64,000 nucleotides of DNA, from NCBI GenBank assembly GCA_049324715.1, contig JBMOMR010000049.1:8026-72025 (forward strand), written 5' to 3'. Origin of the DNA: Chloroflexota bacterium. GTDB lineage: Bacteria; Chloroflexota; Anaerolineae; Anaerolineales; Villigracilaceae. Under the pieces are notes generated by a model. That model searched no databases. It was given only the letters and a program-made list of their open reading frames with translations, and was not told where the DNA came from. The translations under genes and the position numbers were made by a program. Positions 31,371-46,651 of the stretch are shown here, piece after piece; position 1 is the stretch's first letter, and each line of letters opens with the position of its first letter.

Positions 31371-31975
31371 TGAAAATGTCCCCCCTCGACCGCGTCCTCC
31401 TCCTCGTCACTGGCCTGCTTGCCGCGTATCAAGTGGCGGTGGGCATAGACGGCTTCGGCGCGGTCCCCATCATCGCTTACACCATCGCCTTCGGTGTCCT
31501 GCTCGTGGCGGGACTCCTGCTCATCATCTGGGGCTTCGACGTGTTGGATTCGCCCGTGGTGGTCATCGTCTCGACGGCCATCCCGCTCTCCATCTCATTG
31601 GGACTCGTCTGGCAGTACCTCGTTTCATTTCGGACCTCGTACCTGGTCTTCGCCATTTTGGGTTTCCTCGCCGTGACGTTGACCCGCTCGATCCCCACCC
31701 CTGGCAAAATCCCCACCATCATCCTCGCCCTTGTCCACGGCATCGCGGGCATGACGATCTTCCTGCTCCCCATCCTCTTCTCCGTCCAGGGGATGACCCA
31801 GCCGCTCTTCTCCCTCGTCGGCGTGGGCGGCGCGCTGATCGGCATCGGCGGGCTGGCGCTGTCCTTCCTCAAGGCAGGCAAACCCATCCTCTCGAAAGAA
31901 CTGATCCTGAAGATCCTGCCCGTCATCCTGTTCCTGATGACACTCTGCTTCGTAATTGGTTTCAAGTATGGATAA
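31370..31975 (+). CDS. Polytopic membrane protein, paralog family C (C2)
   Basis: Its start overlaps the UbiA stop (TAATG); paralogous to C1; the listed ORF 30917..31975 is an upstream extension in the same frame. Confidence 0.55.
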   Translation: MKMSPLDRVLLLVTGLLAAYQVAVGIDGFGAVPIIAYTIAFGVLLVAGLLLIIWGFDVLDSPVVVIVSTAIPLSISLGLVWQYLVSFRTSYLVFAILGFLAVTLTRSIPTPGKIPTIILALVHGIAGMTIFLLPILFSVQGMTQPLFSLVGVGGALIGIGGLALSFLKAGKPILSKELILKILPVILFLMTLCFVIGFKYG

Positions 31976-32453
31976 GACGCAAGTCCTCTCGTATCTCGCC
32001 CATCTCAAATCCTTTCGCGGCGAGTTGAAGAAAAGCCGCTACAAGATCTGGCTGCGCGCCTTCCTGCTGGTCCAATTCTCGGCACTGTTTTGTATCTATT
32101 TCGTTCGCGACATCGGCAACGGATATTTCAGTTGGACGCGTGTTCTGGAAGTGTTCGCCTGCTTCATCCCAGTCGGATTCCTGCTGAGTCTCATTGTCCC
32201 CATGAAAGCGGACGTGGAACTCGGCGCGGTTACCCTCTCGCTCGACCGCTTCTACCTCTTCCTGATCTGGTTTCTGGTCATCGCCAAACTCATCATCGGA
32301 CGCATCCCATTCTTCACCCCTGAAGCGGACTTCATCATGTCGGCCATCATCGGCATCATGTTCGGCAGGCTGGGAGGCATCGGGCTGAGAGTTCGGCAAT
32401 TGAAAGTGCAATATGGTTTCATAAAAAGACAAAACTCAACAGGTCACGCATAA
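31956..32453 (+). CDS. Hypothetical four-TM membrane protein
   Basis: Overlaps the C2 end; hydrophobic helices; the likely start is 31968 (MDKTQ). Confidence 0.45.
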   Translation: MVSSMDKTQVLSYLAHLKSFRGELKKSRYKIWLRAFLLVQFSALFCIYFVRDIGNGYFSWTRVLEVFACFIPVGFLLSLIVPMKADVELGAVTLSLDRFYLFLIWFLVIAKLIIGRIPFFTPEADFIMSAIIGIMFGRLGGIGLRVRQLKVQYGFIKRQNSTGHA

Positions 32454-32487
32454 GGCGTGGCCTATTTTTTCTCAAAAGGAGAATGCA

Positions 32488-33171
32488 ATGTCCCACAACA
32501 GTTTCTTCGCAAAATCCCTCCGTTTCATCGGCATCGTGCTGATGGCGCTCACGGGCGGATTTACCCTGCTGGGCGGCGTTGGCACGTCCTGCGTCGCCAT
32601 CAGTCCCACAGGCTTCGGCGAAAGCATGGCCCCGCTGGCAAAACTCCAGTGGTTGTACATCCTGTTCGTGCTGGCAGGGATCACCATCGGCGTGCTGGGC
32701 ATCCGCGCCACCATCGCGCTCATCAAAGGCGCGGACAAGTCCTACCGCGACGCGTTGTACGCCTTGATCGCGGGTGTGGTGGTCGGGTTCGTCCATATCT
32801 TCGTCTCACGCGCCCTGCGCGGCAAATCCATGCCCGTGGACGCGGTGGTGTACACGACCGTCCTCACGCTGGTCATCTTCCTGCTCTTCAAGATCCCCGC
32901 CATCTGGCAGGGCGTGGACTTTGCCAAGGCCAAAGCGGAGAAGAACAAACCCGCGGGCGGCGCGGCGGCCATCCTGCTCGGCCTCCTGACGCTCACCATC
33001 CAATACACAATGGGGCCCACTCACACCTGGGACAACGTCAACTATGCGGACGCCTTCAACCTGTCCATGACGGGGATTGGGATTGGATTGTTGCTCCTCG
33101 GCGCGGCGGTATTCGTTCCGTGGCGAGCGCTTCTTCTATTCCGAAGGAATGGAATGATTGTAAAGGCATAA
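32488..33171 (+). CDS. Polytopic membrane protein with a family-C-like RBS and N-terminus (C3)
   Basis: RBS CAAAAGGAGAATGCA precedes the ATG, the same motif as upstream of C1; the L(M/L)TGG N-terminal helix resembles C1. Confidence 0.5.
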   Translation: MSHNSFFAKSLRFIGIVLMALTGGFTLLGGVGTSCVAISPTGFGESMAPLAKLQWLYILFVLAGITIGVLGIRATIALIKGADKSYRDALYALIAGVVVGFVHIFVSRALRGKSMPVDAVVYTTVLTLVIFLLFKIPAIWQGVDFAKAKAEKNKPAGGAAAILLGLLTLTIQYTMGPTHTWDNVNYADAFNLSMTGIGIGLLLLGAAVFVPWRALLLFRRNGMIVKA

Positions 33172-33286
33172 ACATCAATCCACAAAAATCCCGAGGGGAT
33201 GACATGATTCACTCGATCTATGCCATCCCTTCGGGATTCCGAAAACTGACCCCTCGTTTTATAATCATTTCACCCCTTCGGGGTTT

Positions 33287-33715
33287 TCATCCCCATAGTT
33301 CCTTCGTTAACTCGATTATCTGATTCTGCTGTTCCGCGCTCAAACCAACAAACGGGGAATTTGCATCAGTCGTATCGCGGTTCTCCACGATCAACACTTT
33401 TGCATCCTCGCTGAATGTGTGCGAGTGCCAGGCGCCGCGCTTCACGTTGTAGAGTTTGTGCGGCTCCATATCCACCGCGTGGACGGCGGTCACGCTTTCG
33501 TCCCCCTCCCCCAGGAATAGGATACATCGTCCCGCCAGTAGGACGAAGACCTCGTCCGTCTCGATGTGTTTTTGCATCCAATTAATCTTTTCGGGCACGA
33601 GGTCGGGCGTGTAATTCATCAGCGCCACGCGCCAACTCTGATAGTCAATGAGCGGCTTGTAGTCGGGGCCGTTGTGTTCGCGGATTTCGAGGAGGGATTC
33701 GGGGAGAGTGGTCAT
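33287..33715 (-). CDS. Cupin domain protein
   Basis: VFVLLAGRCILFLGEGDESVTAVHAVDMEPHKLYNVKRGAWHSHTF is a cupin_2 pattern; the listed longer ORF 33287..34144 over-extends across the ferredoxin gene. Confidence 0.6.
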   Translation of the reverse strand: MTTLPESLLEIREHNGPDYKPLIDYQSWRVALMNYTPDLVPEKINWMQKHIETDEVFVLLAGRCILFLGEGDESVTAVHAVDMEPHKLYNVKRGAWHSHTFSEDAKVLIVENRDTTDANSPFVGLSAEQQNQIIELTKELWG

Positions 33716-33766
33716 GCCATGGATTCTACTCCAGTCTGCGGACGGCTTTCGAGTATACTCGGCACA

Positions 33767-33982
33767 ATGCCTCGTCTGATCCGCATCCGCATCAACCTGG
33801 ACCTCTGTCAGGCCTGCCAGCAATGTTCGGCGCTGAAGATCTGTAAGCCGCGCGCCATCATGCAGCCTGACCCGGGGGAATCTCCGTACCTGGATATCGA
33901 GCGTTGTCGCGATTGCGGCGTCTGCATGGAAGCCTGTCCGTTTCGGGCGATCGAGTTGACGGGCACGTTCCCCCAAGCCTGA
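33767..33982 (+). CDS. 2x[4Fe-4S] ferredoxin
   Basis: CQACQQCSALKIC and CRDCGVCMEACP motifs; 71 aa. Confidence 0.65.
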   Translation: MPRLIRIRINLDLCQACQQCSALKICKPRAIMQPDPGESPYLDIERCRDCGVCMEACPFRAIELTGTFPQA

Positions 33983-34182
33983 TAAATCGAATAAGGGAAA
34001 ATCTCCCCCACAGCACGCGGGGGCGAGAAAACGCGTCCATTGCCGCGCCCGCCTCAAGTCAAGAAAGATGCGGATTTTTGCATCCGCATCAATTTTATTT
34101 AATTTAGGATTGACAATTTCAATATTATAAGTATAATTATTCAAAGATAATCAATTTTGTTTTTCGTTTTCTTGAGGCCGAA

Positions 34183-35469
34183 ATGCAAAATCCTAACCAA
34201 CCTGTCCCCCAAAACTGGGCTGTCCGCTTTTTCACCATCTTCGCGGGACAGGCCTTTTCGCTGTTCGGCTCGTCTGTGGTGCAGTTCGCACTGGTCTGGT
34301 ATCTGACCCTCAAAACGGGATCGGCTACGGTGCTCGCGACCGCCTCCCTGTTCGCCATGTTGCCGCAGATCCTGCTCGGACCGATCGCGGGGACCGTGGT
34401 GGACCGCGGCAACCGCCGCCTCATCATGATCGTTTCAGACTCGCTGATCGCCCTGTCCACGCTCGTGTTGATCTACCTGTTCTGGGTGGGCAAAGTGGAA
34501 GTCTGGTACATCTACCTCATCTCCGCCATCCGCTCGCTGGGTGGCGCGTTCCATTATCCCGCCATGGCGGCATCCACCACGTTGATGGTTCCCGAAAAAC
34601 ATTTGGCGCGCGTGGCTGGCGCAAACCAGACCCTGCAGGGATTGGTGAGTATCGTCGCGCCGCCCATCGCCGCGCTGCTCGTGGCGGCCATGCCCACACA
34701 GAACGTGCTGATGATCGACGTGCTGACCGCCATCCTAGGCGTGGCTCCCCTGCTCTACTTCTCCGTCCCTCAGCCCGCCTCCGACTCCACCGAAGCGGGC
34801 ACGGCTCCGAAAAGTTTTCTACAAGACCTGGGCGCGGGATTCAAATACGTGGTCTCCTGGCCTGGCCTTTTGATGCTCGGCCTGATGGCTACTCTCCTGA
34901 ATTTCCTGCTCGCGCCCACCAGTGCGCTCACGCCCCTGCTCGTGACCAAATACTTCGGCAAAGGCGCGCTCGAACTCGGCAGTCTCGATTCGCTCTTCGG
35001 CATCGGGATGATCATCGGCGGCCTCATCCTCAGCGCGTGGGGCGGGTTCAAAAGACGCATGGTCACCTCGCTGACGTTCATCGCGCTCTTCAGTTTCGCC
35101 ATCCTTGCCATTGCCATCGCCCCCGCCGACAAGTTCTGGATCATGCTGGCTGCGATGTTCGCGTTCGGATTATTCCTGCCATTCGTCAACGGCCCCATCC
35201 ACGCGCTGTTCCAATCCCTGATCGAGCCGAACATGCAGGGACGCGTCCTCTCGCTGGTCAACAGCGTGGCGCAGGCCATGATGCCGCTCAGCCTGCTGAT
35301 CGCTGGTCCCGTCAGCGACGCGACCAGCCTGCAGACCTGGTTCTGGGTCGCGGGCATTCTCAACCTCGCCATCGCGCTGATCGGATTCTTCGTCCCTGCG
35401 CTGATTCGGATCGAGGACAATCACCACTCGAAGGTGAACGAGACCGAGACCGTCGCCGCGGCGGATTAA
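34183..35469 (+). CDS. MFS transporter (EntS/macrolide-efflux-like)
   Basis: 12 TM helices; MFS motif GPIAGTVVDRGNRR; TTGACA-N16-TATAAT promoter at 34111-34138. Confidence 0.8.
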   Translation: MQNPNQPVPQNWAVRFFTIFAGQAFSLFGSSVVQFALVWYLTLKTGSATVLATASLFAMLPQILLGPIAGTVVDRGNRRLIMIVSDSLIALSTLVLIYLFWVGKVEVWYIYLISAIRSLGGAFHYPAMAASTTLMVPEKHLARVAGANQTLQGLVSIVAPPIAALLVAAMPTQNVLMIDVLTAILGVAPLLYFSVPQPASDSTEAGTAPKSFLQDLGAGFKYVVSWPGLLMLGLMATLLNFLLAPTSALTPLLVTKYFGKGALELGSLDSLFGIGMIIGGLILSAWGGFKRRMVTSLTFIALFSFAILAIAIAPADKFWIMLAAMFAFGLFLPFVNGPIHALFQSLIEPNMQGRVLSLVNSVAQAMMPLSLLIAGPVSDATSLQTWFWVAGILNLAIALIGFFVPALIRIEDNHHSKVNETETVAAAD

Positions 35470-35562
35470 TCTTTCCAAACGAACGAGCGCGTCCCACCAT
35501 CCAAAAATAAAACAGGGTTGCATTTCTGCAACCCTGTTGGTCGGAAAACCAATCTTGTAGTC

Positions 35563-35775
35563 TTACGTGAGCAGGACAACGTTCGCCGCCTGAAGGCCCT
35601 TCGGCCCTTCTTCGACGGAGAACTCCACCTTTTGCTCAGCCTCCAATTTTTTGTAACCTTCCATCTGCAACGCGCTGAAATGGACAAAAACATCCTCGCC
35701 ATTCTCGCGGCCGATGAAGCCGTAGCCCTTCGTGGCATTGAACCACTTGACGGTGCCAACAAAACGTTCAGACAT
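35563..35775 (-). CDS. csp: Cold-shock protein (CspA family)
   Basis: [21 protein letters not shown]…DVFVHFSAL carries the RNP1 and RNP2 motifs; long 5' UTR; hairpin terminator at 35497-35530. Confidence 0.85.
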
Positions 35776-36056
35776 GCTACTTTCTCCTAACAGAAACAGA
35801 ATTCGCCCGGTCGTCCGTTTCGCTTGCAACGGGCGAACGCGGGCACGTTCGCTAATTTATCACTTCTAATTGGACATGTCAAGCCCAAATTTTATTTTCT
35901 TCCGAATCGTCGCAAAACGCGAGACAAGATGGACCCACGGCGGTGACCACCTCACCCGCGGGACCCCACGCTGGATGACCATCCGCAACTCCTCTGGACA
36001 TAAAATATTTTTTTCAAGGACAAGATTCCCCTCCAAATTAGCAATGCTGAATTAGA

Positions 36057-37343
36057 CTACACGATACATACTACTCTAAAACCAACATTATTTAATGCTT
36101 CCTCATCGGGAAGAAAAGTATATCGGCTAGAAACACGCGCACCGTACTGATAGAAACTCCACGCGCCCCCGCGTAATGCAAGCCCTGTGCATGATCTGTC
36201 ATAATAATTAGCCTGCCATTCCCAAACATTGCCAGCCATATCCATCACCCCATGTGTGCTAATTCCACGTAGGTAGGCGTTCACCGGAGTGGTACCGCCA
36301 ATATTGTAATGGACATTTGCCCGTCGCGCGATTTCCCTATCGTTCCTCGTCGCTATGTGAGCCTTATCCCATGGATAACGAGACATTGGATTTTCTCCTC
36401 CCGCTGCGGCTGACCACTCAATTTCCAAAGGAAGGCGGATTTGTTTAGGGTGAAAATCTGGATTTGCAAGTTCTTCAAGACTGTCCTTCCAGTTACGAAG
36501 TAGCCATTTGCAATAGGCATTTGCCTCATACCATGAAATAGCAACTACAGGATGATCGTGTTTAACAATGCCAAGTTCAGCATCGTGCCAATAGGTAGGG
36601 AAATATCCTGAAATTTTCGATTTACTTTTTAACCACTTCCAACCTTCATTTTCCCACTGACCAATTTGGATACAGTTTTCGTTGAATTTAGGAAACTCAG
36701 TCCATATCGAATCGTTTACAGAAAAATCAAGCGAAGATAAAAAACGTTCGTACTGTACATTAGTGATGGGATATTTGCTAATATGGAATGTATAAGGAAC
36801 TTGACCAATGGGTATAGAAACGAATCTATGCAGATCAAAATCATCGCTATCCTTAAAATCCAATGCCAGTTCCGCAGGTGTCTTTCGATCCAAATCGCGG
36901 GCGCATTTCTCTAGCGCTTGCAATAATTGTGGATAGGCATACAAGGAAGAATCGCCTATGGAATGGCTAGCAAACCTAATATGATGTAAATGGTTAAGAC
37001 AAAATGGAACATCACAATTGTCAAACAAATAAGGCACAATAAAAATTCTACCGTCAGGTTTGTTTTTTGAAATATCTAAAGCCTCCTTAATTTCTCTTTG
37101 AACATAGCCATCTTTAGTTGTAGACTCTTTCGAGAGACAAATAATAATATTGTCCACAGTACTCATGACTTTAAGAATCTTCATATCCCATTTTTCCCCC
37201 GGTAGCAGTTGCTCTTCAGCTATCCAAGGGTCGATCCAAGCCTCAGTTTTTAAGCGATCGTATAACTTACGCGCTTTAGATTCATCTTCCTGAGCATGGC
37301 AGATAAACACACTAAGTTTTCGATGCGTTGAGGATATAGTCAT
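36057..37343 (-). CDS. TIR domain protein fused to a C-terminal non-catalytic FGE/SUMF1-like domain (low-GC island)
   Basis: TIR motifs are SVFICHAQEDESKARKLY, YVQREIKEAL and RIFIVPYLFDNCDVP. FGE motifs are ISWYEANAYCKWL, MDMAGNVWEW, RGGAWSFYQY…GFRVVC. No Cys pair follows RGGAW. Local GC is about 40%. Confidence 0.75.
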   Translation of the reverse strand: MTISSTHRKLSVFICHAQEDESKARKLYDRLKTEAWIDPWIAEEQLLPGEKWDMKILKVMSTVDNIIICLSKESTTKDGYVQREIKEALDISKNKPDGRIFIVPYLFDNCDVPFCLNHLHHIRFASHSIGDSSLYAYPQLLQALEKCARDLDRKTPAELALDFKDSDDFDLHRFVSIPIGQVPYTFHISKYPITNVQYERFLSSLDFSVNDSIWTEFPKFNENCIQIGQWENEGWKWLKSKSKISGYFPTYWHDAELGIVKHDHPVVAISWYEANAYCKWLLRNWKDSLEELANPDFHPKQIRLPLEIEWSAAAGGENPMSRYPWDKAHIATRNDREIARRANVHYNIGGTTPVNAYLRGISTHGVMDMAGNVWEWQANYYDRSCTGLALRGGAWSFYQYGARVSSRYTFLPDEEALNNVGFRVVCIV

Positions 37344-37420
37344 AGAAACCAGCCTAATATTTTATGCGAACAAGTTCAATAGCCAATTAACTAATCCTAC
37401 CTGAAATTGTGGGTAGTACT

Positions 37421-38101
37421 TTATTGTCTCAAATCGGCTTTGAATTTCTTGATCACAAAAGCATACCGAGAAGCCAAATGAAACCAAGGGGGAGACCACT
37501 TAACGCATGGAACGCTATTTTTGATAGCCTGCCGTAAACCAATTGGGTTGTCAAACCAATGGAGGAAAAGTAGGGATCGTCCAACTTCTATTGCCGCGTG
37601 TGCATCCGAACCAACTGTTCCTGCCACATTATACCTTTTTGCAAACCATTTTGCATGATTATTAAACCACGGCAACATACACCGTGAGTTGAACACCTCA
37701 ATTGCATCCACCAACGGGACAATTTCCTCCAAATCGAACAGTGCCCAGCCCCCTTTCCGCAACCTGTCGAACGGATGCGACACGCTGATAAACGCCCCCT
37801 GCTCCCGCAACCGACGGATCGTCTCCTGCGGCGAAAGCCCCGCGGGAACCTCCTCCGACACGAACGCGGCCAGAATCTCCCCCCGCGTCGTCATAACCTC
37901 CTCCCCGACGATGATCCGCTCTGGGTCAATTCTCTGTGCTTCGAGTGCCCCCGCAATGGAATTGTGATCCGTCACAACGACGCGGTCAATCCCCTTCCGC
38001 CGCGCCGCCGCGACCAGGTCCGCGGGACGGAGGAGGGAGTCCGCTGAGGCGGAGGTGTGGCAGTGGAATTCTACACGAAATTGGGATGATATTTGTGGCA
38101 T
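37421..38101 (-). CDS. PHP-domain metal-dependent phosphoesterase
   Basis: HCHTSASADSL is the PHP motif I; additional His and Asp residues (DHNS, SHPF, GSDAHA). Confidence 0.7.
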   Translation of the reverse strand: MPQISSQFRVEFHCHTSASADSLLRPADLVAAARRKGIDRVVVTDHNSIAGALEAQRIDPERIIVGEEVMTTRGEILAAFVSEEVPAGLSPQETIRRLREQGAFISVSHPFDRLRKGGWALFDLEEIVPLVDAIEVFNSRCMLPWFNNHAKWFAKRYNVAGTVGSDAHAAIEVGRSLLFLHWFDNPIGLRQAIKNSVPCVKWSPPWFHLASRYAFVIKKFKADLRQ

Positions 38102-38197
38102 TCGTTACTTGACAAAGAAGTTTTTGCCAGTATATACTGACAGTACGAAATACGCAAAGACGACTTTGGTTTAGCCGGTGGCGGAGAGCATCGCTGA

Positions 38198-40042
38198 ATG
38201 AACGTGATTGCGTTTCTCAATAACATGTTCGTCCTAGCCAACGCAATGTTGGATGTTGCGTTTCTTTGGGGTGGAATAATTCTGCTTCTTGCAGTTTATC
38301 CCGTTTACTTTTTCTCGTCTAATCTCAAAAAATACACAAAGGAACATCACGGTCCAGAACTGCTGATGCAAACCGTTATCCTTGTCCTGATCGTCGCGGT
38401 AATTGCATTAGTTTGGGCGCTTCCAGATATCATCTGGGCATTCAAAATGCGGGTAAGCGAACCATCGACTACCTCAATCACACTAAATGTAGTTACCGAT
38501 ACAATGAGGATTGATAGGCAGATCGGTTGGAACGAAAAGCCATCCATCGTGCTAAATATGTCTAATGAAGCATTGACAATCGATGAGCCCGTCACTTGGG
38601 GACAATTTGCATGGACTTTTTCATCGATTCGCTGGGGAGTGCTCCTCCTCGCATTTTTTGCCGCCGCATATCTATTGGGACGCGAACACGGAAAAAACCG
38701 ATGGCTGATTTCTGCTGTTGGACATGTTGCGGTGATTGCGATTGGCTGGATTGTCAATTTTTGGATGGGTATTATCTTCATTTCCATACCAATCATTGTC
38801 ATGTACTATGGCGCACTCTATGATCTTGCAAATGTTGTCCTTCCCGCATCAAATCCCGAAGACCGCGCGGAGAAGAAGAAAAAGTTCTTTGTGCTGGCAT
38901 CCTACGCCTGGGGAACCCAGGCGCCCCTCACAGTTGTGGATGACCACGCCTGGAAAAAATATGAACCGCGCATCTCCGGTGATATTACATGGGAATTTTC
39001 TGAATTCCCTATTCCATTCCTGAATAAACTTCAGCGCCCCGGGCTGATCTGGACAAAGTCCCACCAGGTAGCCGCAATTTCTGGCGGAACGAACTTCAGG
39101 CGCATAGATGGTCCCGGCGTGATATTTCCCAGCAAGTTGGAACGTCTCGACCAGGTTTTTGATTTACGGATACAACTCCGCACCAGGGAAATTGAAGTTG
39201 TTAGCAAGGATGGCATCCGCTTTATCGCGCGCTACTTTACCGCGTTTCGCCTCGATAAAGATGAGTGGAACAAGGAACTCTACGACAAAATTCGTCCACT
39301 CAACCCGCTTCTGCGCGGTGCAGACAAGTTGAGTTACACCAAGGGAAGTTTCCCCTTCTCCCACGCGCGTATTCAAGCGACCTTGAGCACTACCAGTACA
39401 AAAGTCAGTGAAGGGACACCGCTCATCCTGTGGGATCAGTGGGTGATGAACGTGGTCGAAGACCAGACGCGCAAGATCATCTCGCAAAAGAATCTGGACG
39501 AGATGTGGCGTCCTACAAATGATTATAAATTTGCCAATGCAATGGATGTTATCGCAATCGAACTCAAGGCAAATTCTGAATTGGCATTGCGCGCGGCTGG
39601 CATTTTGCTGGTTGCCGCTCGAGTGGTGAATTTCAAATTCCTGTTCACAGAAGAACAGGGCGACGAAATTGCCAAGCAGCAAATCCACACATGGGGCTCC
39701 GAATGGGAAAGAAAACGTCACGGCATCCTTGCAGAAGCAGAAGCGGAGGCAGAACGCGCACAACAGGAGGCGCGCGCCTACGCTGAGTCATTGCTTTTGA
39801 ATTCCATCGCGGAAGGCCTGCAAAAAACACACGAGATCAACCCAGAGTTACCTCGCCATGTTATAGCGATGCGTTTCTTGAGTTCACTTCAAGATTACGT
39901 TCACAAAGAAATGTCAGAAGAAGAGGAAGGCGAGGAAGAGAAAAACAACAAGACCAGCGAAAAAGAAAAGAGAGAAATGTTGAGCAGGTATTTCAAGGAT
40001 TGGCAGGACACCTTCTTCTCGGGCCGCGGCACGGAGAAATGA
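38198..40042 (+). CDS. Membrane protein with an N-terminal polytopic region and a C-terminal SPFH/band-7-like domain plus coiled coil
   Basis: About 6 TM helices; the SPFH core is VFDLRIQLRTREIEVVSKDGIRFIARYFTAFRL; C-terminal AEAEAEAERAQQEARAYAE; low GC. Confidence 0.6.
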   Translation: MNVIAFLNNMFVLANAMLDVAFLWGGIILLLAVYPVYFFSSNLKKYTKEHHGPELLMQTVILVLIVAVIALVWALPDIIWAFKMRVSEPSTTSITLNVVTDTMRIDRQIGWNEKPSIVLNMSNEALTIDEPVTWGQFAWTFSSIRWGVLLLAFFAAAYLLGREHGKNRWLISAVGHVAVIAIGWIVNFWMGIIFISIPIIVMYYGALYDLANVVLPASNPEDRAEKKKKFFVLASYAWGTQAPLTVVDDHAWKKYEPRISGDITWEFSEFPIPFLNKLQRPGLIWTKSHQVAAISGGTNFRRIDGPGVIFPSKLERLDQVFDLRIQLRTREIEVVSKDGIRFIARYFTAFRLDKDEWNKELYDKIRPLNPLLRGADKLSYTKGSFPFSHARIQATLSTTSTKVSEGTPLILWDQWVMNVVEDQTRKIISQKNLDEMWRPTNDYKFANAMDVIAIELKANSELALRAAGILLVAARVVNFKFLFTEEQGDEIAKQQIHTWGSEWERKRHGILAEAEAEAERAQQEARAYAESLLLNSIAEGLQKTHEINPELPRHVIAMRFLSSLQDYVHKEMSEEEEGEEEKNNKTSEKEKREMLSRYFKDWQDTFFSGRGTEK

Positions 40043-40043
40043 C

Positions 40044-41435
40044 ATGAAACTCCCTGACCCAGACCTCGTCAACTGGCAAACCGCCTACAGCCGCGATGAT
40101 GCCTATCGGGATTTTGGCAAGTATGCCCGATATTACAAGTATCTGTTATTTGCGAGCATTGGCCTTATTGCGGTTTTTATGGCAATCCAATTCTCACCAG
40201 CCGTTGACCAATGGGTTTCCCATTATTTGGGTAAATCGGATGCTTTGACAAAGGCGTCCATCCTGATGACCTTCCTGCTGGCCTTGTTGGCGGGGTACAT
40301 TGCCCTCTCGCTTATTCGGTCCAGGGCATTTCATTTTGCGACCTTGTTCTTTAGTGATTTTCATCAACCGCCTGAAGGCATCGAGCCAGCAAAAATCATC
40401 AAATACCGTCTCCACGGCAAATTCAAACTACCATCGCCGTTCACGATGATTTTTCAATTCAAATACATCATGGCAAAAGAAGGAGAGTTTATCAAAGCCG
40501 ATCAATGGCCTGCATGGATGGCGCGCACGCTTGGAGGTCCATTACTACTGATCGTATTTGACGGATGCGCCTTATATCTCGAACGCGGCAACCGTTTCTC
40601 GCGCGTTGTCGGCCCCGGGGATAAAATCCCCTTCTTGGAATGGTATGAAACTATCAAGTACGTGGTGGACCTGCGGCCAAGAGTCCGCGAGGATAAATTC
40701 GATGTTTGGACCAAGGATGGGATCAAGATAGAAATCAAGGCGCGCGTCGAGGGTCGCATCGGAGACCCCAAGAAGACGGACCCCGAAGGAAAGTTGATAT
40801 ATCCCTACGACCCAATGGCTGTACAAAAAGCCATTGAACGCTATGCCCTGCGCTGGTCTACCTGCCCGGAGGGAGAACCCGTTGAATTCACGTGGATTGA
40901 CGCAGTTTGGGGGCAGGTAACGGGGATAGTTCCAAGTTATATCGGTAGCAGAACATTAGATGACCTTCTACTAGAAAACCGAAAAAGTGGACAAATGCTC
41001 TCTCCAATTGCTGTTCAAGAGATGTTCGATAAACTAAATAATACTACTCAGGGCTTTGGAGTTTATGTAACAGATTTTCAAATCGTAGAAATAAAGATTC
41101 CACACGAAGTAGAGGAACTTCAAAAGGAATATTGGAAAGCAGAAAGACAAAGCGTGTCTACTATCTTGGGCGGACAGACCAAGGCACTCTATATTAGGTC
41201 TAGAGAAAAAGCCCGTGCAGATGCTCAACGCGACTTGATACTATCTATTGCTGATGGGCTTGAAAAGAATGAAAACGAAAATGAAAATGAACGCTTTACA
41301 GCACCCTTGCTTCTAACTTTCTCAAAAATCCTAGACAATAGCCTTAGCGACCCTCTTATGCGAGCGTACTTAGCAACAGCGACCCTTGAAACTCTTGAGA
41401 AACTACAGAGTATGCTTTCAAAGACATCTCAATAG
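40044..41435 (+). CDS. SPFH/band-7 (stomatin/HflK-like) membrane protein
   Basis: Two N-terminal TM helices; the SPFH core is LERGNRFSRVVGPGDKIPFLEWYETIKYVVDLRPRVREDKFDVWTKDGIKIEIKARVEGRIGD; overlaps the upstream gene (TGAcATG). Confidence 0.7.
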   Translation: MKLPDPDLVNWQTAYSRDDAYRDFGKYARYYKYLLFASIGLIAVFMAIQFSPAVDQWVSHYLGKSDALTKASILMTFLLALLAGYIALSLIRSRAFHFATLFFSDFHQPPEGIEPAKIIKYRLHGKFKLPSPFTMIFQFKYIMAKEGEFIKADQWPAWMARTLGGPLLLIVFDGCALYLERGNRFSRVVGPGDKIPFLEWYETIKYVVDLRPRVREDKFDVWTKDGIKIEIKARVEGRIGDPKKTDPEGKLIYPYDPMAVQKAIERYALRWSTCPEGEPVEFTWIDAVWGQVTGIVPSYIGSRTLDDLLLENRKSGQMLSPIAVQEMFDKLNNTTQGFGVYVTDFQIVEIKIPHEVEELQKEYWKAERQSVSTILGGQTKALYIRSREKARADAQRDLILSIADGLEKNENENENERFTAPLLLTFSKILDNSLSDPLMRAYLATATLETLEKLQSMLSKTSQ

Positions 41436-41444
41436 GACAATCTA

Positions 41445-42488
41445 ATGGTTCTTAACCTTCAATTAATAACTAGTTGGCTTGAAATAGAAGATGGCAGGAT
41501 TGTTGATCTAAAAAACAGCATCATGGCCACATTTGGTAACCCTCAAAAAATGCGTCCATTGATTGATCGACAGTGCGAAAACCGAGAGCAAACCCATTGC
41601 CTCTCGTGTGAAAGCGAAAGTGGGTGCTTGATTTTAAATGGAATTGTTTATCTAGAGTTAGGAGAAATTGAAAACGCAATAAGAGAGATTGAAAGTGCCA
41701 ACCGGCATTTCCGTAATAAAAATGAGACTCTAAATCAAATTATCGGTCTCGTATTGCTGGGACAAGCTTATGAGGATAAGAGAAAGGACCATTTAGCTCT
41801 CCGTGAATACGAACAAGCACAAAATGTTCTTGGAAACTATCGTCGAATCCATGCAAACGATTACTTAACAAAAGCTGAAGCCCTAAAAGATATCCTAGAC
41901 GGAAAAATCTCTGAACTTTCAGAGTCAAACTTTTCTGGCAATAGTTCACCAGCAGGTTCTGTAAATACAAATCCCAATCAAGCTATCAACGCCGGAAAAG
42001 ATTTTCTCGCGTTATTTTCCATTCCAATTTACGGAACCGTCGAAGCGGGCCTAGATGGCACATTGCACATAGATCATTTCAACATTTTCACGATTATCAA
42101 CCAAGTCGAGCTTAAAAAACAACTTTATGATGTCTATAATGTGCATGGCACCGCAGAGGCAGATCGGCAAATAACCATTACAACAAAGAGAGAACATGGC
42201 TGGCTGCGCGTTCATGGTCTAAGCATGAACGACTGGGATTTGCCTTTTAGCGAAAACGATTATGTTTTATTCTACAAATCCCAGACTGCGTCACATCATG
42301 ATTTTGTTATTGCATCAAACACCGACCCGTCAGGCGAAATAGATCTAATGGTCAAAAGATTTGACGCAGAAAAAAATCAATTGGTTTCCAAGTCGAAGGA
42401 TAAAAGCAAGCCGTATGGACCCATTCCAGTTGATGAGAGACACCAAATCGTAGGCATTGTAATCGCCATTGCCAAACCTGCCAAATAA
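41445..42488 (+). CDS. LexA-like S24 peptidase domain protein with a novel Cys4/helical N-terminal domain and no HTH
   Basis: The C-terminal LRVHGLSMNDWDLPFSENDYVLF…DLMVKRF matches the LexA/CI Ser-Lys dyad region. The N-terminal cluster is C-x7-C-x2-C-x5-C. Confidence 0.65.
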   Translation: MVLNLQLITSWLEIEDGRIVDLKNSIMATFGNPQKMRPLIDRQCENREQTHCLSCESESGCLILNGIVYLELGEIENAIREIESANRHFRNKNETLNQIIGLVLLGQAYEDKRKDHLALREYEQAQNVLGNYRRIHANDYLTKAEALKDILDGKISELSESNFSGNSSPAGSVNTNPNQAINAGKDFLALFSIPIYGTVEAGLDGTLHIDHFNIFTIINQVELKKQLYDVYNVHGTAEADRQITITTKREHGWLRVHGLSMNDWDLPFSENDYVLFYKSQTASHHDFVIASNTDPSGEIDLMVKRFDAEKNQLVSKSKDKSKPYGPIPVDERHQIVGIVIAIAKPAK

Positions 42489-42532
42489 CAACCAGACAAA
42501 AACAACGGGAATTTACGGGTAAAATAAAAGTT

Positions 42533-43459
42533 ATGCCCTCTCCCCTCCTCCTCGGCTCCTCCTCCCTCGACATCGTCGGCCGCCTGGATTCTGACCTCCA
42601 GCCAGGCACGTCCAATCCCGCGCGGATACGCACCTCGTACGGCGGGGTGGCGCGGAATGTGGCTGAGAATTTGGCGCGGCTGGGGCAGCCCGTGAAACTC
42701 GTCAGCGTGGTGGGCAAGGATCGGTCTGGGGACGAGTTGCTCGAGAGCACCGCCTCCGCGGGCGTGGATGTGTCTGCGGTCCTCCGCACCGACCTCTACC
42801 CCACAGGCTTCTACATGGGCGTGGTGGATTCTCGGGCACATCTCCGTTTCGCGGTGGACGATATGCGCGTCATGTCGGAACTCACGCCTGAATATCTCCA
42901 GCAAAACGCCAGCCTTTTTGATGAAGCCAGTCTCGTTTTCATGGACGGCAACCTGCCCGAAGCCACGCTCAAAGCCGCGGTGGCACTCGCCCGAAAGGCG
43001 AAGGTCCCCATTTGCGCTGATCCCGCCTCCTCGGTCCTGGCGGAGCGATTACAACCTCACCTCGGCAAACTGCATCTCGTCACCTGCAACGTCGCAGAGG
43101 CCGTCGCCCTCACAGGTCAGGCTTTCGAGTCGTCCGATCCACGCGCGGCGCTGGAAGATGCCCGCGCCCTGTTATCCAAAGGTGCGGACATCGCGCTTGT
43201 CACGCTCGCGGAATTCGGCGTGGTGTACGCCACCGCCGAGACGAGCGGGCACATCCCCGCCATCCAGACGCCCATCCTCGACCCCACAGGCGCGGGTGAC
43301 GCGCTCACCGCGGCCGTCCTCTTTGGCCTCGTCAACGAAATGGAAATTGACGACGCGGTGCGGCTCGGCGTTTCTGCCGCGTCGCTCACCCTGCGGCACT
43401 CGGGCACCGTCTTCCCCCAACTCACGCTCGAAAAACTCTACGAACAATTGGTGATCTAA
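42533..43459 (+). CDS. psuK: Pseudouridine kinase (PfkB family)
   Basis: Ribokinase-like fold with the DPTGAGDA motif; immediately upstream of psuG. Confidence 0.7.
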   Translation: MPSPLLLGSSSLDIVGRLDSDLQPGTSNPARIRTSYGGVARNVAENLARLGQPVKLVSVVGKDRSGDELLESTASAGVDVSAVLRTDLYPTGFYMGVVDSRAHLRFAVDDMRVMSELTPEYLQQNASLFDEASLVFMDGNLPEATLKAAVALARKAKVPICADPASSVLAERLQPHLGKLHLVTCNVAEAVALTGQAFESSDPRAALEDARALLSKGADIALVTLAEFGVVYATAETSGHIPAIQTPILDPTGAGDALTAAVLFGLVNEMEIDDAVRLGVSAASLTLRHSGTVFPQLTLEKLYEQLVI

Positions 43460-44391
43460 TGAACTCTCTCCCTGCCTCCTTTATCGTTAAGGATGACGTC
43501 AAACGCGCCTTGAAACTGGACCAGCCCGTCGTCGCGCTCGAATCAACCGTCCTGACTCACGGACTCCCGCATCCGACCAACCTCGCGCTGGGTCGCGACA
43601 TGGAGGCCGCCGTCCTCGCTGACGGCGCCACGCCCGCCACGATCGCCGTCCTGCGCGGCACGATCCGCGTCGGCCTGACGGATGAAGAACTCGTCGAAGT
43701 CGCGCAATCCAGCACCATGAAGATCAGCCGCCGCGACTATGCCGCCGCCATCGCAAAAAAAGCCAGCGGCGGGACAACCGTGGCAGGGACGATGTTCGCG
43801 GCCGACAAAGTCGGCATCAAGGTTTTCGCGACGGGAGGCATCGGCGGCGTGCACAAGGAAGGCCGCTTCGATGTTTCCACCGACTTGCAAGCGCTGGCCT
43901 CCACACAGATGATCGTCGTCTGTGCGGGTGCGAAATCCATTTTAGATTTGCCGTCCACACTGGAGATGCTCGAAACGAACGGCGTCCCCGTTCTCGGCTA
44001 CGGCACGGACGAGTTCCCCGCCTTCTTCTCGCGCTCCAGCGGATTCAAAACCAGCGCCCGCGTCGACTCGCCGCAAGAAGTGGCGGAGTTTGCCCGCGCC
44101 CATTGGGAAATTGGAATGCCGTCTGCTGTGTTGGTCTGTCAGCCTATCGCAGAGAAAGATGAGATCTCCCGCGAGGAAATTGACCCCATCGAGGAACGGG
44201 CCTCGCTCGAAGCGCAGGAAAAGGGGATCAGCGGTCAGGCACTGACGCCGTTCCTGCTTCAGCGCGTGAACGAGTTGACGAACGGAAAGTCCATGCGAGC
44301 GAACATATCGTTTTTGCTCAACAACGCCCACCTCGCTGCGCAGATAGCGAAGGCGATGGCCCCCACAAAGATTAAGATCAAGGCGATGTAA
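43459..44391 (+). CDS. psuG: Pseudouridine-5'-phosphate glycosidase
   Basis: YeiN/PsuG-like sequence (…ALESTVLTHGLP…GGIGGVHKE…). Confidence 0.85.
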   Translation: MNSLPASFIVKDDVKRALKLDQPVVALESTVLTHGLPHPTNLALGRDMEAAVLADGATPATIAVLRGTIRVGLTDEELVEVAQSSTMKISRRDYAAAIAKKASGGTTVAGTMFAADKVGIKVFATGGIGGVHKEGRFDVSTDLQALASTQMIVVCAGAKSILDLPSTLEMLETNGVPVLGYGTDEFPAFFSRSSGFKTSARVDSPQEVAEFARAHWEIGMPSAVLVCQPIAEKDEISREEIDPIEERASLEAQEKGISGQALTPFLLQRVNELTNGKSMRANISFLLNNAHLAAQIAKAMAPTKIKIKAM

Positions 44392-44392
44392 A

Positions 44393-44444
44393 TACAGAAC
44401 CCTCCGAGAGATTAGTTTCGGAGGGTTCTTTCATTTTTATTTTT
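44393..44444. terminator. Bidirectional rho-independent terminator
   Basis: GAACCCTCCGA…TCGGAGGGTTC followed by TTTCATTTTTATTTTTT. Confidence 0.8.
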
Positions 44445-44954
44445 TCAACCTGCGTTATTCAACATATCTTTCACCAATTGCTCGGGGACTTGCACAGCGA
44501 CCACCTCGCCTTTCACGGTGACCACTCCGTTGACCGTGATCCATTCCTCAATAATGACCTTCCTCCCTTTCACTTCTTTCACCTTGCCGCGAATTTCAAG
44601 CGTGGGGCCGAGGGGAGTGGGCTTCAGATAGTCCACATGCAGAGAGGCGGTCAGGTAGCGGAGCGGAGGCTCGGTGTCCATCTCGCGGTTTTCGGTGCGG
44701 TAGCCAGCCGCGGCGGCGGTCCCCGTCCCGTGGCAGTCGATCAGCGAAGCGAGCAATCCGCCATAAACGTAGCCAGGAATCGCCGTGTGGTACGGCTGGG
44801 GGTTGAAGTACGCGACCGATTCGTCCCCATCCCAATGACTCTTGATCTGGTGGCCGAGTTCGTTCTGGCTTCCACATCCATAGCAGACGGCGAAATAATC
44901 GGGGTAGTAATCCTGAAAGGCCTTATCAGACATGCAATGAAATCTCCTTTTCAA
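44445..44954 (-). CDS. PaaI/hotdog-fold thioesterase
   Basis: Hotdog-fold pattern with the N-terminal Zn-ribbon-like CYGCG; GYVYGGLLASLID. Confidence 0.6.
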   Translation of the reverse strand: MKRRFHCMSDKAFQDYYPDYFAVCYGCGSQNELGHQIKSHWDGDESVAYFNPQPYHTAIPGYVYGGLLASLIDCHGTGTAAAAGYRTENREMDTEPPLRYLTASLHVDYLKPTPLGPTLEIRGKVKEVKGRKVIIEEWITVNGVVTVKGEVVAVQVPEQLVKDMLNNAG

Positions 44955-44979
44955 AAATAGAGCGAGATGGGTTCTCGCT

Positions 44980-45807
44980 CTACGGTGTTGCGGTTTGTGC
45001 GCTCGTTGGAGTTGGGCTGAGCGTCGCAGAAGGGATGGGCGTGGGAGGCGCGTCCCCTTCCACGGTGAACGAACCCGCGCGTTTGAAGATTACGCCCACG
45101 TAAATTTGCACCGAGTATTCCCCCGGTTGCCAGCCGCCAGTGGGAAAATCGCACTCGCTGTAATAATAGCCGCCTGTGCCGCCGTCCCACGGATAACTCT
45201 CGAAGCAGTCCATCAACTCGCCGTTACGGTACCAGAGCGCCGTCCACTGCGAGCCAGGGACCATGCCATCGTACGAAAAAGTGGCAAAGACCCTCTGGAT
45301 CGGATTGCGGAACAATGTGGACGGGTTATCGGGCAGGCCGCCGACCACCGCCGTGGAAAACACCAGCGGACTGATGACCGCGTCGGGATTGGGCGTCACC
45401 ACGCTGATGAATCCCGCCTCCACGACCAACGGGAGAAACGGGGTTGCTGTTCCTGTCGGCGTGTCGGTGACGAGGGGTGTATCGGTGATGGTGGGCGTCA
45501 GTGTAATGGTGGGAGTGAGCGTAATCGTCGGGACGATGGAGGGCGTCAGCGTGGGGGCGATGGTGGGCGTTGGCGGGTAGATCTGGAAGGCAACTTTCAA
45601 TCCCGCGGTGGGAAGTAGGATGGCAAGCACGACCATGATCAGCGCGCCAAAGAACATCCACCACGCGGCAGACATGCGTGACTGACGCAGGCGGTAGAAC
45701 GTCAACTTGCGGGCAGATTGGAGGATTTGCAGTCCGTTGCGGGCAACCAGCAACGCCCCCAACCCAAGGATGACCGCAATCGCAATGATGCCAGAGCGAA
45801 TGTCCAT
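44980..45807 (-). CDS. Hypothetical membrane-anchored protein with TP-rich linkers
   Basis: Two TM helices; PTPTI repeats; the conserved C-domain (WYRNGELM…GEYSVQIYVG) is shared with the next gene. Confidence 0.5.
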   Translation of the reverse strand: MDIRSGIIAIAVILGLGALLVARNGLQILQSARKLTFYRLRQSRMSAAWWMFFGALIMVVLAILLPTAGLKVAFQIYPPTPTIAPTLTPSIVPTITLTPTITLTPTITDTPLVTDTPTGTATPFLPLVVEAGFISVVTPNPDAVISPLVFSTAVVGGLPDNPSTLFRNPIQRVFATFSYDGMVPGSQWTALWYRNGELMDCFESYPWDGGTGGYYYSECDFPTGGWQPGEYSVQIYVGVIFKRAGSFTVEGDAPPTPIPSATLSPTPTSAQTATP

Positions 45808-45829
45808 ACGATGATTATAGCACTGCCCG

Positions 45830-46651
45830 TCAGCGCGTCGGAGTGGCGCTCGGCGTCTCGGATGGAGGCGGGCTGGAGGTCCAGGTGGGAGACGAGGTGG
45901 GCGTATCGGTCGGCGTGGGCGGATTGCCCCTCAGCGTGAAGCGCCCCGTCGCCTTCCACTGCGCCCCCACGAAGAACTGCACTTCGTATTCCCCTTGGTG
46001 CCACTCGTGGATCGCAGGCTCCCATTTGACGGACGCACCGCCGCGTCCGCCCGATTCCCATGGACCGCTCTCGAAAAAGACCAGTTCGCCGTTGCGGAAC
46101 CACAACACGGTAAATTGAGCGCCATACGTCATGTGGCTGTAGGCAAAACTGGCGTACATGCGGAGAATGGGATTGGTGAACTCGAAACGATTGCCGATCG
46201 GATAATTACCATCCAGCGCTTCGGAAAAACGAATGTCGTTGATGACGGCGGAGGGCTGCGGCGTGACCGAACTGACCACCATGATTTCCAGTGAGATGGG
46301 CAAATGCGGAGTCGCTGTGGATGTGGCCGTGGCGGTCATCGTGCGGCCGGGGCGCGGCGTGGATGTCGGCGTGCGGCTCGGCGTGACAACCGCCGGCGAT
46401 GCGATCACCGCGGTGGCTGTCGGTTCGGGAGCAAGGATCGGAATGCGAGCGCGGTACAAAAGCAGGGCGACCACCGCCAGTAACAGCGACGCGCCCGTCA
46501 TCCACCAACCCGCGAGCACGCGCTGTCGGCGGTGTCGGAAGTAGATGGTTCTGCTTCCCAGCCGCAGGGCGCGCACGCCCGAAAGTAGCAGAAAGAAAGA
46601 AACGGCTACAAGAATGAAAACGAGCAGGTTGGTCCTGCTGAACAAGTCCAT
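45830..46651 (-). CDS. Hypothetical membrane-anchored protein, tandem paralog of 44980..45807
   Basis: Same architecture (WFRNGELVFFESGPW…GEYEVQFFVG). Confidence 0.5.
   Translation of the reverse strand: MDLFSRTNLLVFILVAVSFFLLLSGVRALRLGSRTIYFRHRRQRVLAGWWMTGASLLLAVVALLLYRARIPILAPEPTATAVIASPAVVTPSRTPTSTPRPGRTMTATATSTATPHLPISLEIMVVSSVTPQPSAVINDIRFSEALDGNYPIGNRFEFTNPILRMYASFAYSHMTYGAQFTVLWFRNGELVFFESGPWESGGRGGASVKWEPAIHEWHQGEYEVQFFVGAQWKATGRFTLRGNPPTPTDTPTSSPTWTSSPPPSETPSATPTR

Follow-up and report, generated by a model that had tools for sequence, protein, structure and literature searches.

A three-module mosaic at a conserved Chloroflexota locus carries an exchangeable SPFH-pair cassette that may act as a conflict module

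We analysed a 64,000-nucleotide stretch of a Chloroflexota genome (contig JBMOMR010000049.1; hereafter the window), in which five genes form a block of low GC content between the cold-shock gene csp and the pseudouridine catabolism genes psuK and psuG (psuKG). These are a PHP phosphoesterase gene (PHP), a gene joining a TIR domain to an FGE domain (TIR-FGE), two SPFH genes (P3 and P4) and a gene that combines a TPR-like domain with a peptidase S24 domain (P5); proteins of the window are in NCBI as ACOYZ6_09875 and ACOYZ6_09880, from a Chloroflexota metagenome-assembled genome (MAG). An earlier note on this DNA had taken the five genes as one unit inserted between csp and psuK, and had proposed a novel defence system. 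Our data demonstrate that the block is not a single five-gene island. It is a mosaic of three modules at a locus conserved in Chloroflexota, where PHP belongs to the core, TIR-FGE was inserted separately, and P3-P4-P5 is an old occupant of the slot between PHP and psuKG. P3-P4-P5 belongs to one type of SPFH-pair cassette (type A), which is an exchangeable, hyperdivergent allele, decoupled from host phylogeny and swapped in modules between near-identical strains. Judged from sequence, we give about an even chance to the reading that type A is an SPFH-scaffold conflict module with a proteolytic switch. The defence idea has thus gained from relatives in which a TIR domain is fused to P3 within defence islands and from the shuffling of alleles, and has lost its form as a five-gene island.

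The GC scan bore out the low-GC block from which the note had started. GC content is 0.39-0.50 over 36-42.5 kb versus 0.52-0.64 across the rest of the window; the profile is thus not uniform, and this is the sole such dip. GC content at third codon positions (GC3) is 0.36 in TIR-FGE, 0.53 in P3, 0.48 in P4 and 0.36 in P5, and 0.55-0.87 in all other genes of the window; amino-acid composition was ruled out as the cause of the low GC because the deficit lies at third codon positions. The dip is uneven within PHP, the 5' two-thirds of which (37662-38101) has a native GC3 of 0.72, and the 3' third a GC3 of 0.36. Three modules can be delimited, running from 36000 to 37661 (i), from 37662 to ~40870 (ii) and from ~40870 to 42532 (iii).

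Module i (36000-37661) is missing from the two closest relatives, the loci L015 and L131, with both breakpoints coinciding in both; the left-flank alignment with these loci stops at 35999. Next to the segment, a relic of the original PHP 3' end is matched at 95% identity by residues 186-228 of the L131 PHP protein in tblastn. Within PHP itself, residues 1-146 are 89-90% identical to L015 and L131, and residues 147-226 are 51-52% identical. Together, the breakpoints, the switch of identity and GC3 within PHP, and the relic indicate that TIR-FGE came on a 1.66-kb foreign piece that recombined within PHP. This segment was laterally acquired, separately from PHP and from P3-P4-P5, and it is the only part of the block that is absent at the same site in close relatives, since P3 and P4 exist in L015 and L131 and P5 is replaced in L131. 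PHP stands beside csp in more than 100 related loci regardless of its other neighbour, empty sites included, and its identity between loci tracks that of psuG (rho 0.51-0.65) and not that of P4 (rho 0.16). We rejected PHP as a member of the system because it evolves with the flanks and persists at empty sites and at sites holding the alternative, type B, cassette; it is a core flanking gene. Its product matches the CehA/McbA metallohydrolase domain of NCBIfam, under the cut-off.

The history of the type A cassette differs from that of its flanks. Between the window and L015, the csp, psuK and psuG proteins are 99%, 95% and 93% identical, against 49%, 55% and 29% for P3, P4 and P5, and DNA similarity collapses over 38293-42532 and returns, at 89%, exactly at the psuK start (42533). 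Among locus pairs in which psuG is at least 80% identical, P4 ranges over 36-77% and P5 over 23-56%; over all locus pairs, psuG identity correlates with that of PHP at rho 0.51 and with that of P4 at only 0.23. P4 is ~55% identical to the window whether psuG is 93% or 58% identical, which is not the pattern of a merely fast clock. The identities of P3 and P4 co-vary (rho 0.72-0.91), and P5 is uncorrelated with either. Variation is concentrated in the TPR domain of P5, with a mean identity of 19% between loci, and in the N-terminal region of P3 (27%), the lowest within P3 and P4. The comparison with L131 reveals a swap of modules between near-identical strains: the flanks share 92.6% DNA identity, the MFS protein is 97%, csp 100% and P3 95% identical, and P4 is ~97% identical over residues 1-300 and ~60% over residues 301-463. 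DNA identity falls from 94-98% to 67% at ~40870 and to noise beyond 41456, and the gene after P4 in L131 encodes a DUF4062 protein, not P5 (L131:8233-9126, plus strand; the contig ends inside the gene).

Composition is in accordance with this picture. Over 44 loci, the GC3 of type A genes lies below that of PHP and psuKG by 0.13 (P3), 0.145 (P4) and 0.21 (P5); the deficit is present in 86-100% of the loci, and in 100% for P5, whose GC3 falls below that of the other cassette genes in each locus. Type B genes are near native (-0.045 and -0.067), as is csp (-0.04). Low GC is thus a standing property of type A in many hosts, and a laterally circulating pool fits this better than a recent event in the present genome.

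The position of the cassette, in turn, is old. Scanning genomes with a P4 profile yielded 43 loci, the majority from Anaerolineales, and a metagenome scan anchored on PHP returned 80, of which 48 had enough sequence 5' of PHP to be classified. In nearly all loci of the P4 scan, csp and PHP on one strand are followed by P3, P4, often P5, and psuK/psuG on the other, down to 30% P4 identity, and the same order recurs in MAGs labelled Herpetosiphon and Chloroflexus; a P5-family member lies directly 3' of P4 in 36 loci according to a P5-profile search, and the adjacency of csp and PHP is kept in most PHP-anchored loci. Because the same slot is used from Anaerolineae to the Herpetosiphon and Chloroflexus MAGs, P3-P4-P5 was not newly inserted in this genome, and its position is old and common to relatives. 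The genes are strongly co-localised, so the concern attached to the note that they might be dispersed housekeeping genes falls away.

What varies is the content of the slot. Among the 48 classifiable loci, 29 carry a type B pair (Q1-Q2), six carry type A (P3-P4, with or without P5), two carry both, eight show other contexts and three (L111, L117 and L129) have no pair ahead of psuK/psuG; in L111 and L117, the distance from PHP to psuG or psuK is 24 and 471 nt and the slot is empty, and L129 has a 1.5-kb gap containing an unrelated open reading frame (ORF). Q1 and Q2 are further SPFH paralogues, Q1 matching P3 at 99.4% and Q2 matching P4 at 97.9% in profile-profile comparison; some type B cassettes include a P5-family gene, and some are inverted. 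Thus, the slot is almost always filled by an SPFH pair whose identity varies, with at least two alternative cassettes in Anaerolineae and other Chloroflexota, and the window has the minority type A.

Several loci deserve description in their own right. Inverted Q1-Q2-P5 cassettes occur in L002 (11424-17248, minus strand), L084, L100, L112 and L114; in L002, the inverted cassette is followed by an ORC/Cdc6-like P-loop ATPase of 525 aa, and two SPFH cassettes stand head to head. Of these elements, L006 and L007 keep the ATPase alone after P4, and such an ATPase follows P4 in L002, L006, L007 and probably L051. In L077 (1-6892), the PHP orthologue stands beside an unrelated co-directional four-gene cluster (364, 372, 727 and 825 aa), another occupant of the slot, in which the 825-aa protein starts like a response regulator. 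The last cassette gene (P5 or Q2) overlaps or nearly touches the start of psuK/psuG in many loci, among them L013, L028, L029, L030, L034, L041, L083, L104 and L115.

Proteins of the SPFH class, such as stomatin, prohibitin, flotillin and HflK/C, are known as membrane scaffolds, and sequence and models predict that P3 and P4 are paralogous members of this class. P4 matches Band_7 (PF01145) at 41.9 bits against a cut-off of 23.6 and has weak PDB matches to the PH stomatin, HflC and QmcA. P3 has no Pfam match on its own sequence, and many of its homologues carry a precomputed PF01145; profile-profile alignment (hhalign) joins P3 to P4 at 98.5%, and P4 also matches P3 in tblastn. The AlphaFold2 (AF2) model of P3 (pLDDT 69) retrieves HflK/C, stomatin and prohibitin at E 1e-6 in Foldseek, and also flotillin, QmcA and MVP. 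By hydropathy, P3 has 5-6 transmembrane (TM) helices; a variable head of about residues 1-160, with three to four of them and a 69-residue loop, precedes a TM hairpin (~165-214), the SPFH domain, a 58-residue helix (490-547) of the coiled-coil kind and an acidic tail. In P4, a TM hairpin is predicted to leave both ends in the cytoplasm, and the positive-inside rule and hydropathy predict the same location for the SPFH domains of both proteins. Both proteins show the membrane anchor and C-terminal coiled coil expected of SPFH proteins (hydropathy and the P3 model). A single 1055-aa protein, P0384, unites a P4-like and a P3-like half, which is consistent with P3 and P4 working together. The P3 family is small and lineage-restricted, with 470 relatives among 1.84 billion cluster representatives, 75 of them at E <= 1e-30.

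P5 combines a Peptidase_S24 domain (PF00717, 39.1 bits against a cut-off of 23.3) with an all-helical TPR-like domain over residues 1-161, modelled with good confidence; it has no TM segment, and its AF2 model has a pLDDT of 73. P5, whose N-terminus had been described as Cys4/helical, does contain four Cys, three of which (Cys52, Cys55 and Cys61) are invariant across the family. Ser260 (nt 42222-42224) is also invariant, and Lys304 (nt 42354-42356) and an Ala201-Gly202 pair (VEAG; nt 42045-42050) are kept in at least 90% of sequences. In Foldseek, P5 matches LexA and the C-terminal domain of lambda cI, including the cI fragment with the cleavage site (E 1e-5); no helix-turn-helix or other DNA-binding domain was found in P5 by Pfam, NCBIfam or the model. 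P5 therewith appears to be a LexA-type, predicted self-cleaving module in which a TPR/Cys domain takes the place of the DNA-binding domain, and the conserved catalytic, Cys and site residues, set against a TPR domain averaging so low an identity, make it look like a sensor. The domain assignments of the earlier note (TIR, FGE, PHP, two SPFH and S24) hold throughout in Pfam hidden Markov model, profile-profile and fold comparisons, as does its remark that a pairing of SPFH with S24 is unusual.

The link to immunity comes from relatives of P3. Five P3-type proteins are fused to a TIR_2 domain: P0287, P0333 and P0344, found among ten scanned length outliers, and P0235 and P0240, found via a word-indexed search. 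They are 27-56% identical to P3, all score as type A, and a type-A P4 follows each. In P0287, P0333 and P0344, the match to P3 starts at residue 255-275 and is preceded by an N-terminal TIR_2. In the fusions, the TIR domain and a charged linker substitute for P3 residues 1 to ~162 and the TM hairpin is retained, which puts TIR in the cytoplasm together with the SPFH domain; by this alignment, the membrane head of canonical P3 would occupy the position of an effector domain. In three independent contigs, L048 (5404-11385), L049 and L050, an 858-aa type I/IIG N6-adenine methyltransferase lies 20 nt upstream of TIR-P3, which is followed by P4, and a DDE transposase and a type I restriction endonuclease fragment lie near this row; methyltransferase, TIR-P3 and P4 may be a three-gene system. 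Other TIR-P3 contexts include PemK and PIN toxin-antitoxin pairs and a HerA-like ATPase of 1140 aa.

TIR domains also stand next to the cassette as separate genes. The fused TIRs share 37-50% identity over 117-145 aa, as well as the glutamate motif, with the TIR domain of TIR-FGE in the window. TIR or TIR-like genes adjoin the cassette in six of ~52 canonical type-A loci and in none of 29 type-B-only loci (rough p ~0.08): the window and L004 (TIR-FGE), L027 (TIR-caspase), L108 (TIR), L131 (DUF4062) and L024 (DUF4062-STAND). None of the four TIR_2 ORFs in the 690 kb of loci is more than 2.5 kb away from a cassette (rough p ~0.04), and the enrichment of TIR near type A is suggestive only. In L027 (13872-16088), the TIR-caspase protein is encoded two genes after P5, and in L024 (13522-19976), a protein joining DUF4062, an ORC/Cdc6-like domain and a winged helix-turn-helix, together with two nSTAND5 ATPases, follows P5. 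DUF4062 has been described as a TIR-like NADase with antiphage activity (Swarozyc), and also as the NADase of TEP1 within the eukaryotic vault, where ADP-ribose was located at the MVP shoulder (10.64898/2026.05.01.722283).

The protein encoded by TIR-FGE has a TIR_2 domain (67.5 bits, 2e-18, residues 12-127) that retains the glutamate motif YVQREI, and an FGE-sulfatase domain (120 bits, 1.3e-34, residues 185-425; both Pfam). The latter was rightly called non-catalytic, as the catalytic Cys pair is absent from its RGG..W segment and its best PDB match is the non-catalytic SUMF2/pFGE, followed by PorK/GldK. Conflict proteins of multicellular bacteria with an N-terminal effector and a C-terminal FGS domain of the C-type-lectin fold have been described (Kaur et al. 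2020, PMC7159879; Dore et al. 2024, PMC10907252), and TIR-FGE shares their domain syntax, in a host of a filamentous-type Chloroflexota lineage. Unlike those systems, no vWA-MoxR or STAND genes occur near it, between 33000 and 45500, and no template/variable repeat pair of a diversity-generating retroelement was found in 30000-50000 (a reverse transcriptase was not searched for over the rest of the window). Most simply, TIR-FGE is a separate sensor-effector of the effector-FGS kind that landed in the neighbouring slot; cooperation between TIR-FGE and the SPFH scaffold is possible, given the common TIR subfamily.

How might such a module work? By analogy with HflK/HflC, P3 and P4 would assemble at the membrane, on its cytoplasmic side, into a hetero-oligomeric ring or cage, the state of which P5 would hold or set. 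A trigger would lead to S24 cleavage of P5 as a one-shot switch; it could be a co-protease signal of the RecA* kind, the binding of a phage protein to the hypervariable TPR domain, or thiol or metal stress at the Cys cluster. The scaffold would then change state and activate the variable head of P3, which might damage the membrane in the present case and, through the TIR NADase, hydrolyse NAD+ in the mobile relatives; the cell would be arrested or killed.

Each part of this proposal has a counterpart in a known system. E. coli HflK/HflC-FtsH (PDB 7vhp, 7wi3 and 9cz2) likewise has tandem paralogous SPFH genes whose products comprise an N-terminal anchor, an SPFH domain and a long coiled-coil helix and are linked to proteolysis, and HflK and HflC are the top Foldseek matches for P3. 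However, P4 scores far below the NCBIfam cut-offs for these proteins (21 bits versus 159.4 for TIGR01933, 17 bits versus 134.4 for TIGR01932), and the SPFH domains of HflK/HflC are periplasmic, whereas those of P3 and P4 are predicted to be cytoplasmic. Moreover, the partner of HflK/HflC is the AAA+ protease FtsH, whereas here it would be a soluble, predicted self-cleaving S24 protein; no ftsH was found in the conserved neighbourhood of the cassette, and the cassette, unlike HflK/HflC, is hypervariable and exchanged between lineages. In Pyrococcus, the PH1510 protease cuts the C-terminus of stomatin. This PH1511 stomatin-PH1510 pair and QmcA-YbbJ (PDB 8z5g) represent the SPFH-NfeD operons, which resemble the cassette in joining an SPFH protein to a dedicated Ser-Lys protease, and QmcA is among the fold matches to P3 and P4. 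Unlike the NfeD partner, P5 has neither the NfeD OB-fold nor a ClpP/S49 fold in Pfam or NCBIfam and is not membrane-bound; it has the S24 fold of LexA/UmuD, a TPR domain and a candidate Ala-Gly site of its own. P5 is like LexA, UmuD and lambda cI in its S24 fold, its Ser-Lys dyad and, as a candidate cleavage site, an Ala-Gly on the strand ahead of the catalytic domain, but unlike LexA and cI it has a TPR-like N-terminus with a Cys cluster and no DNA-binding domain, and unlike all three its gene lies behind membrane SPFH genes and not in the SOS regulon.

On the effector side, the TIR or TIR-like NADase systems (Thoeris ThsB, TIR-STING/SAVED and Swarozyc) share with TIR-P3/P4 and TIR-FGE a TIR_2 domain with a glutamate motif, and the DUF4062 gene directly after P4 in L131 is Swarozyc-like. 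They differ in that no ThsA, SAVED, STING or cyclase partner accompanies the genes described here, and none of those systems has an SPFH-pair scaffold. Thoeris in particular found no support: ThsB_TIR scores 16.8 bits against a cut-off of 21.2, no ThsA-like gene occurs among the ORFs of 33000-45500, and PADLOC has no Thoeris match. The shoulder domain of MVP is SPFH-like. The eukaryotic vault (MVP cage plus TEP1) offers a likeness, in that it combines a cage protein of the SPFH fold with a TIR-like NADase, and the Foldseek matches of P3 include MVP structures, one of them an ADP-ribose-bound vault. The likeness is one of parts, with homology at the level of the SPFH fold only: a cage built from P3 and P4 would be membrane-bound and not a free particle, and the window's cassette contains no NADase.

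In PADLOC-DB v2.0.0, the window gave only TIR-domain matches for TIR-FGE and a 46-residue match of PHP to Ppl, and the SPFH parts and partners of the TIR-P3 fusions gave none; the statement that no named defence system matches the locus thus stands. The searchable literature returned nothing relevant on SPFH or Band 7 with S24, TIR, anti-phage or abortive infection. The component families are already known, and the overall kind, an SPFH scaffold with a dedicated protease partner, is known as well; none of three combinations was found in PADLOC v2 or the searchable literature, namely the SPFH pair with a TPR-S24 switch, the TIR-SPFH fusion and the exchangeable cassette at a fixed locus.

Taken together, the TIR fusions, the shared TIR subfamily, the TIR and DUF4062 neighbours, the allele shuffling, the GC3 deficit, the sensor-like look of P5 and the cage-type fold bring the conflict reading of type A to roughly equal chances of being right or wrong. 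A number of observations weigh against it. The Ala-Gly site of P5 lies 59 residues before the Ser, ~24 residues more than the spacing of 35-38 in LexA, cI and UmuD, and the model is of low confidence over 193-216. P5 is absent from all five TIR fusions, so that the proposed switch would not be general, and the membrane head of P3 matched no known effector. PADLOC gave nothing for P3 and P4, only a weak TPR match for P5 and no system model; no relatives of P4 and P5 were found in viral contigs, nor of P3 in phage or plasmid collections. The TIR and DUF4062 neighbours, at ~6 of ~52 loci, could merely share a hotspot. Co-evolution of the P4 C-terminus with P5, a candidate prompted by their joint swap in L131, was unsupported, since no covariation was found over 276 locus pairs (rho 0.16-0.21, equal to that of the P4 N-terminus), and the swap stays a single-case observation. 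Finally, an SPFH pair of some type occurs in ~77% of PHP-anchored loci (37/48), across classes, and in most loci P5 or Q2 either overlaps psuK/psuG or lies at most 25 nt from it.

These last two observations lead to the strongest rival, in which P3/P4, like Q1/Q2, is a housekeeping membrane module, the Chloroflexota counterpart of an HflK/C or stomatin-NfeD scaffold that keeps membrane proteins organised or protected. P5 would then be a partner protease or a stress-released regulator that trims SPFH tails, the nearby TIR, DUF4062 and STAND genes would be unrelated hotspot passengers, and the TIR-P3 fusions a separate exaptation. The rarity of empty sites (L111 and L117), the synteny reaching the Herpetosiphon and Chloroflexus MAGs, the native composition of type B, the folds matching HflK/C, stomatin, prohibitin and QmcA, and the lack of a PADLOC match all fit such a role, as does the fact that S24 and NfeD proteases are both Ser-Lys enzymes. 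The operon-like junctions point the same way: where P5 or Q2 overlaps or closely adjoins psuK/psuG, co-transcription with the pseudouridine catabolism genes is implied, and the cassette and psuK/psuG probably form one transcript from the spacer between PHP and P3, which also contains the best promoter-like match. However, a housekeeping operon would not be expected to be 29-55% identical between genomes with 93-99% identical flanks, or to be swapped in modules between near-identical strains. It also leaves unexplained a lasting GC3 deficit that is specific to type A and to P5, TIR fusions that are specifically type A and lie in restriction-modification and toxin-antitoxin contexts, and the hypervariable TPR domain of P5. 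We therefore rate the housekeeping reading as possible, at clearly less than an even chance. The two readings might be reconciled with type B as the resident scaffold and type A as a derived, conflict-associated paralogue.

A bolder form of the conflict reading is that type-A P3/P4 is the chassis of a new immune class, in which an SPFH cage carries interchangeable effector heads and sensors; we advance this tentatively, and hold it improbable rather than probable. The head would be the membrane domain in the window's cassette and a TIR NADase in its mobile counterparts, and the sensors TPR-S24 here and DUF4062 or an ATPase elsewhere. The alleles would circulate among Chloroflexota under diversifying selection, and the class might parallel or precede the pairing of the MVP shoulder with TEP1 in the eukaryotic vault.

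Two further explanations appear highly unlikely. For a single novel defence island of five genes, acquired en bloc between csp and psuK, one can cite the contiguous low-GC block, the two divergent gene units with a common 96-nt spacer, and L004, the one other locus with a TIR-FGE orthologue (57% identity), which has it in the identical slot with the same five genes in the same order. Against it, L131 and L015 have PHP-P3-P4 without TIR-FGE, the 5' part of PHP is native in composition and sequence, PHP survives without any cassette, and the block resolves into three recombination modules with differing GC3 and histories; neither a recombinase or integrase among the ORFs of 33000-45500, nor a tRNA or Rfam family in the window, nor direct or inverted flanking repeats of note around the block were found. 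Equally remote is a self/non-self or envelope-variation locus, with the head and loop of P3 serving kin recognition between filaments or avoidance of phages at their receptor: alleles are roughly equidistant (~50-60% identity) regardless of host distance, conservation within P3/P4 is lowest in the N-terminal region of P3, and systems of this kind are reported to abound in filamentous Chloroflexota (PMC7159879), to which the hosts belong, but the most variable part is the cytoplasmic P5 and not an exposed loop, predictions put P5 and the SPFH domains in the cytoplasm, and the TIR fusions indicate an intracellular effector role.

The features of the block are listed in the table below. Within it, P4 starts 1 nt past the P3 stop, and P5 starts 9 nt past P4.

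Table 1. Features of the low-GC block and its flanks, in coordinates of the window
Feature	Position (nt)	Strand	Description
csp, cold-shock protein	35563-35775	-	CSD 98 bits; core left flank, outside the system
Relic of original PHP 3' end	35869-35997	-	43 codons plus stop, reads ...RWSPPWVHLVSRFATIRKKIKFGLDMSN then stop
Module i, foreign 1.66-kb segment	36000-37661		TIR-FGE gene and substitute PHP 3' end; GC3 ~0.36
TIR-FGE, 428 aa	36057-37343	-	N-terminal TIR_2, nt 36963-37310; C-terminal FGE/C-type-lectin fold, nt 36069-36791
PHP phosphoesterase, 226 aa	37421-38101	-	Pfam PHP and PHP_C; 37662-38101 native, 37421-37661 foreign
Sigma-70-like promoter match	38109-38138	+	TTGACA-18-TATACT, 11/12, best in region; consensus match alone
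P3, 614 aa	38198-40042	+	Polytopic head, TM hairpin, predicted SPFH domain, coiled-coil helix
P4, 463 aa	40044-41435	+	Two TM helices, SPFH/Band_7, helical C-terminus
Recombination breakpoint inside P4	40743-40892		Border of modules ii and iii; identity drop versus L131
P5, 347 aa	41445-42488	+	TPR-like helical N-domain, disordered linker, Peptidase_S24
psuK and psuG	42533-44391	+	PfkB; pseudouridine kinase under the NCBIfam equivalog cut-off; core right flank

Outside the block, two other parts of the window drew our attention. Over 7001-8000, GC content drops locally to 0.48 with a very strong GC skew of +0.46, and the ORFs 7452-7964 (Trp-rich, one TM helix) and 7957-8265 (Cys-rich, signal-peptide-like) match nothing in Pfam. 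At 44980-45807 (minus strand), a membrane-anchored protein with Pro/Thr-rich repeats (TLTPTITLTPTITDTP...) and tandem repeats at 45488-45570 likewise has no Pfam match.

The searchable literature describes no SPFH protein within an anti-phage or conflict system. The present locus behaves like an immune locus, with relatives that carry TIR inside restriction-modification and toxin-antitoxin islands, and it may represent an undescribed immune module. If the housekeeping explanation were true, the locus would still pair SPFH with S24 for the first time, and would show clearly how alleles at a core locus are exchanged module by module. If the proposed function is confirmed, control of an effector by a membrane cage would be a new architectural principle in bacterial immunity, and a widespread Chloroflexota gene cluster would gain a testable role. 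Confirmation would also provide a simple bacterial model for cooperation between an SPFH-fold cage and a TIR-like NADase, a question newly raised for the eukaryotic vault.

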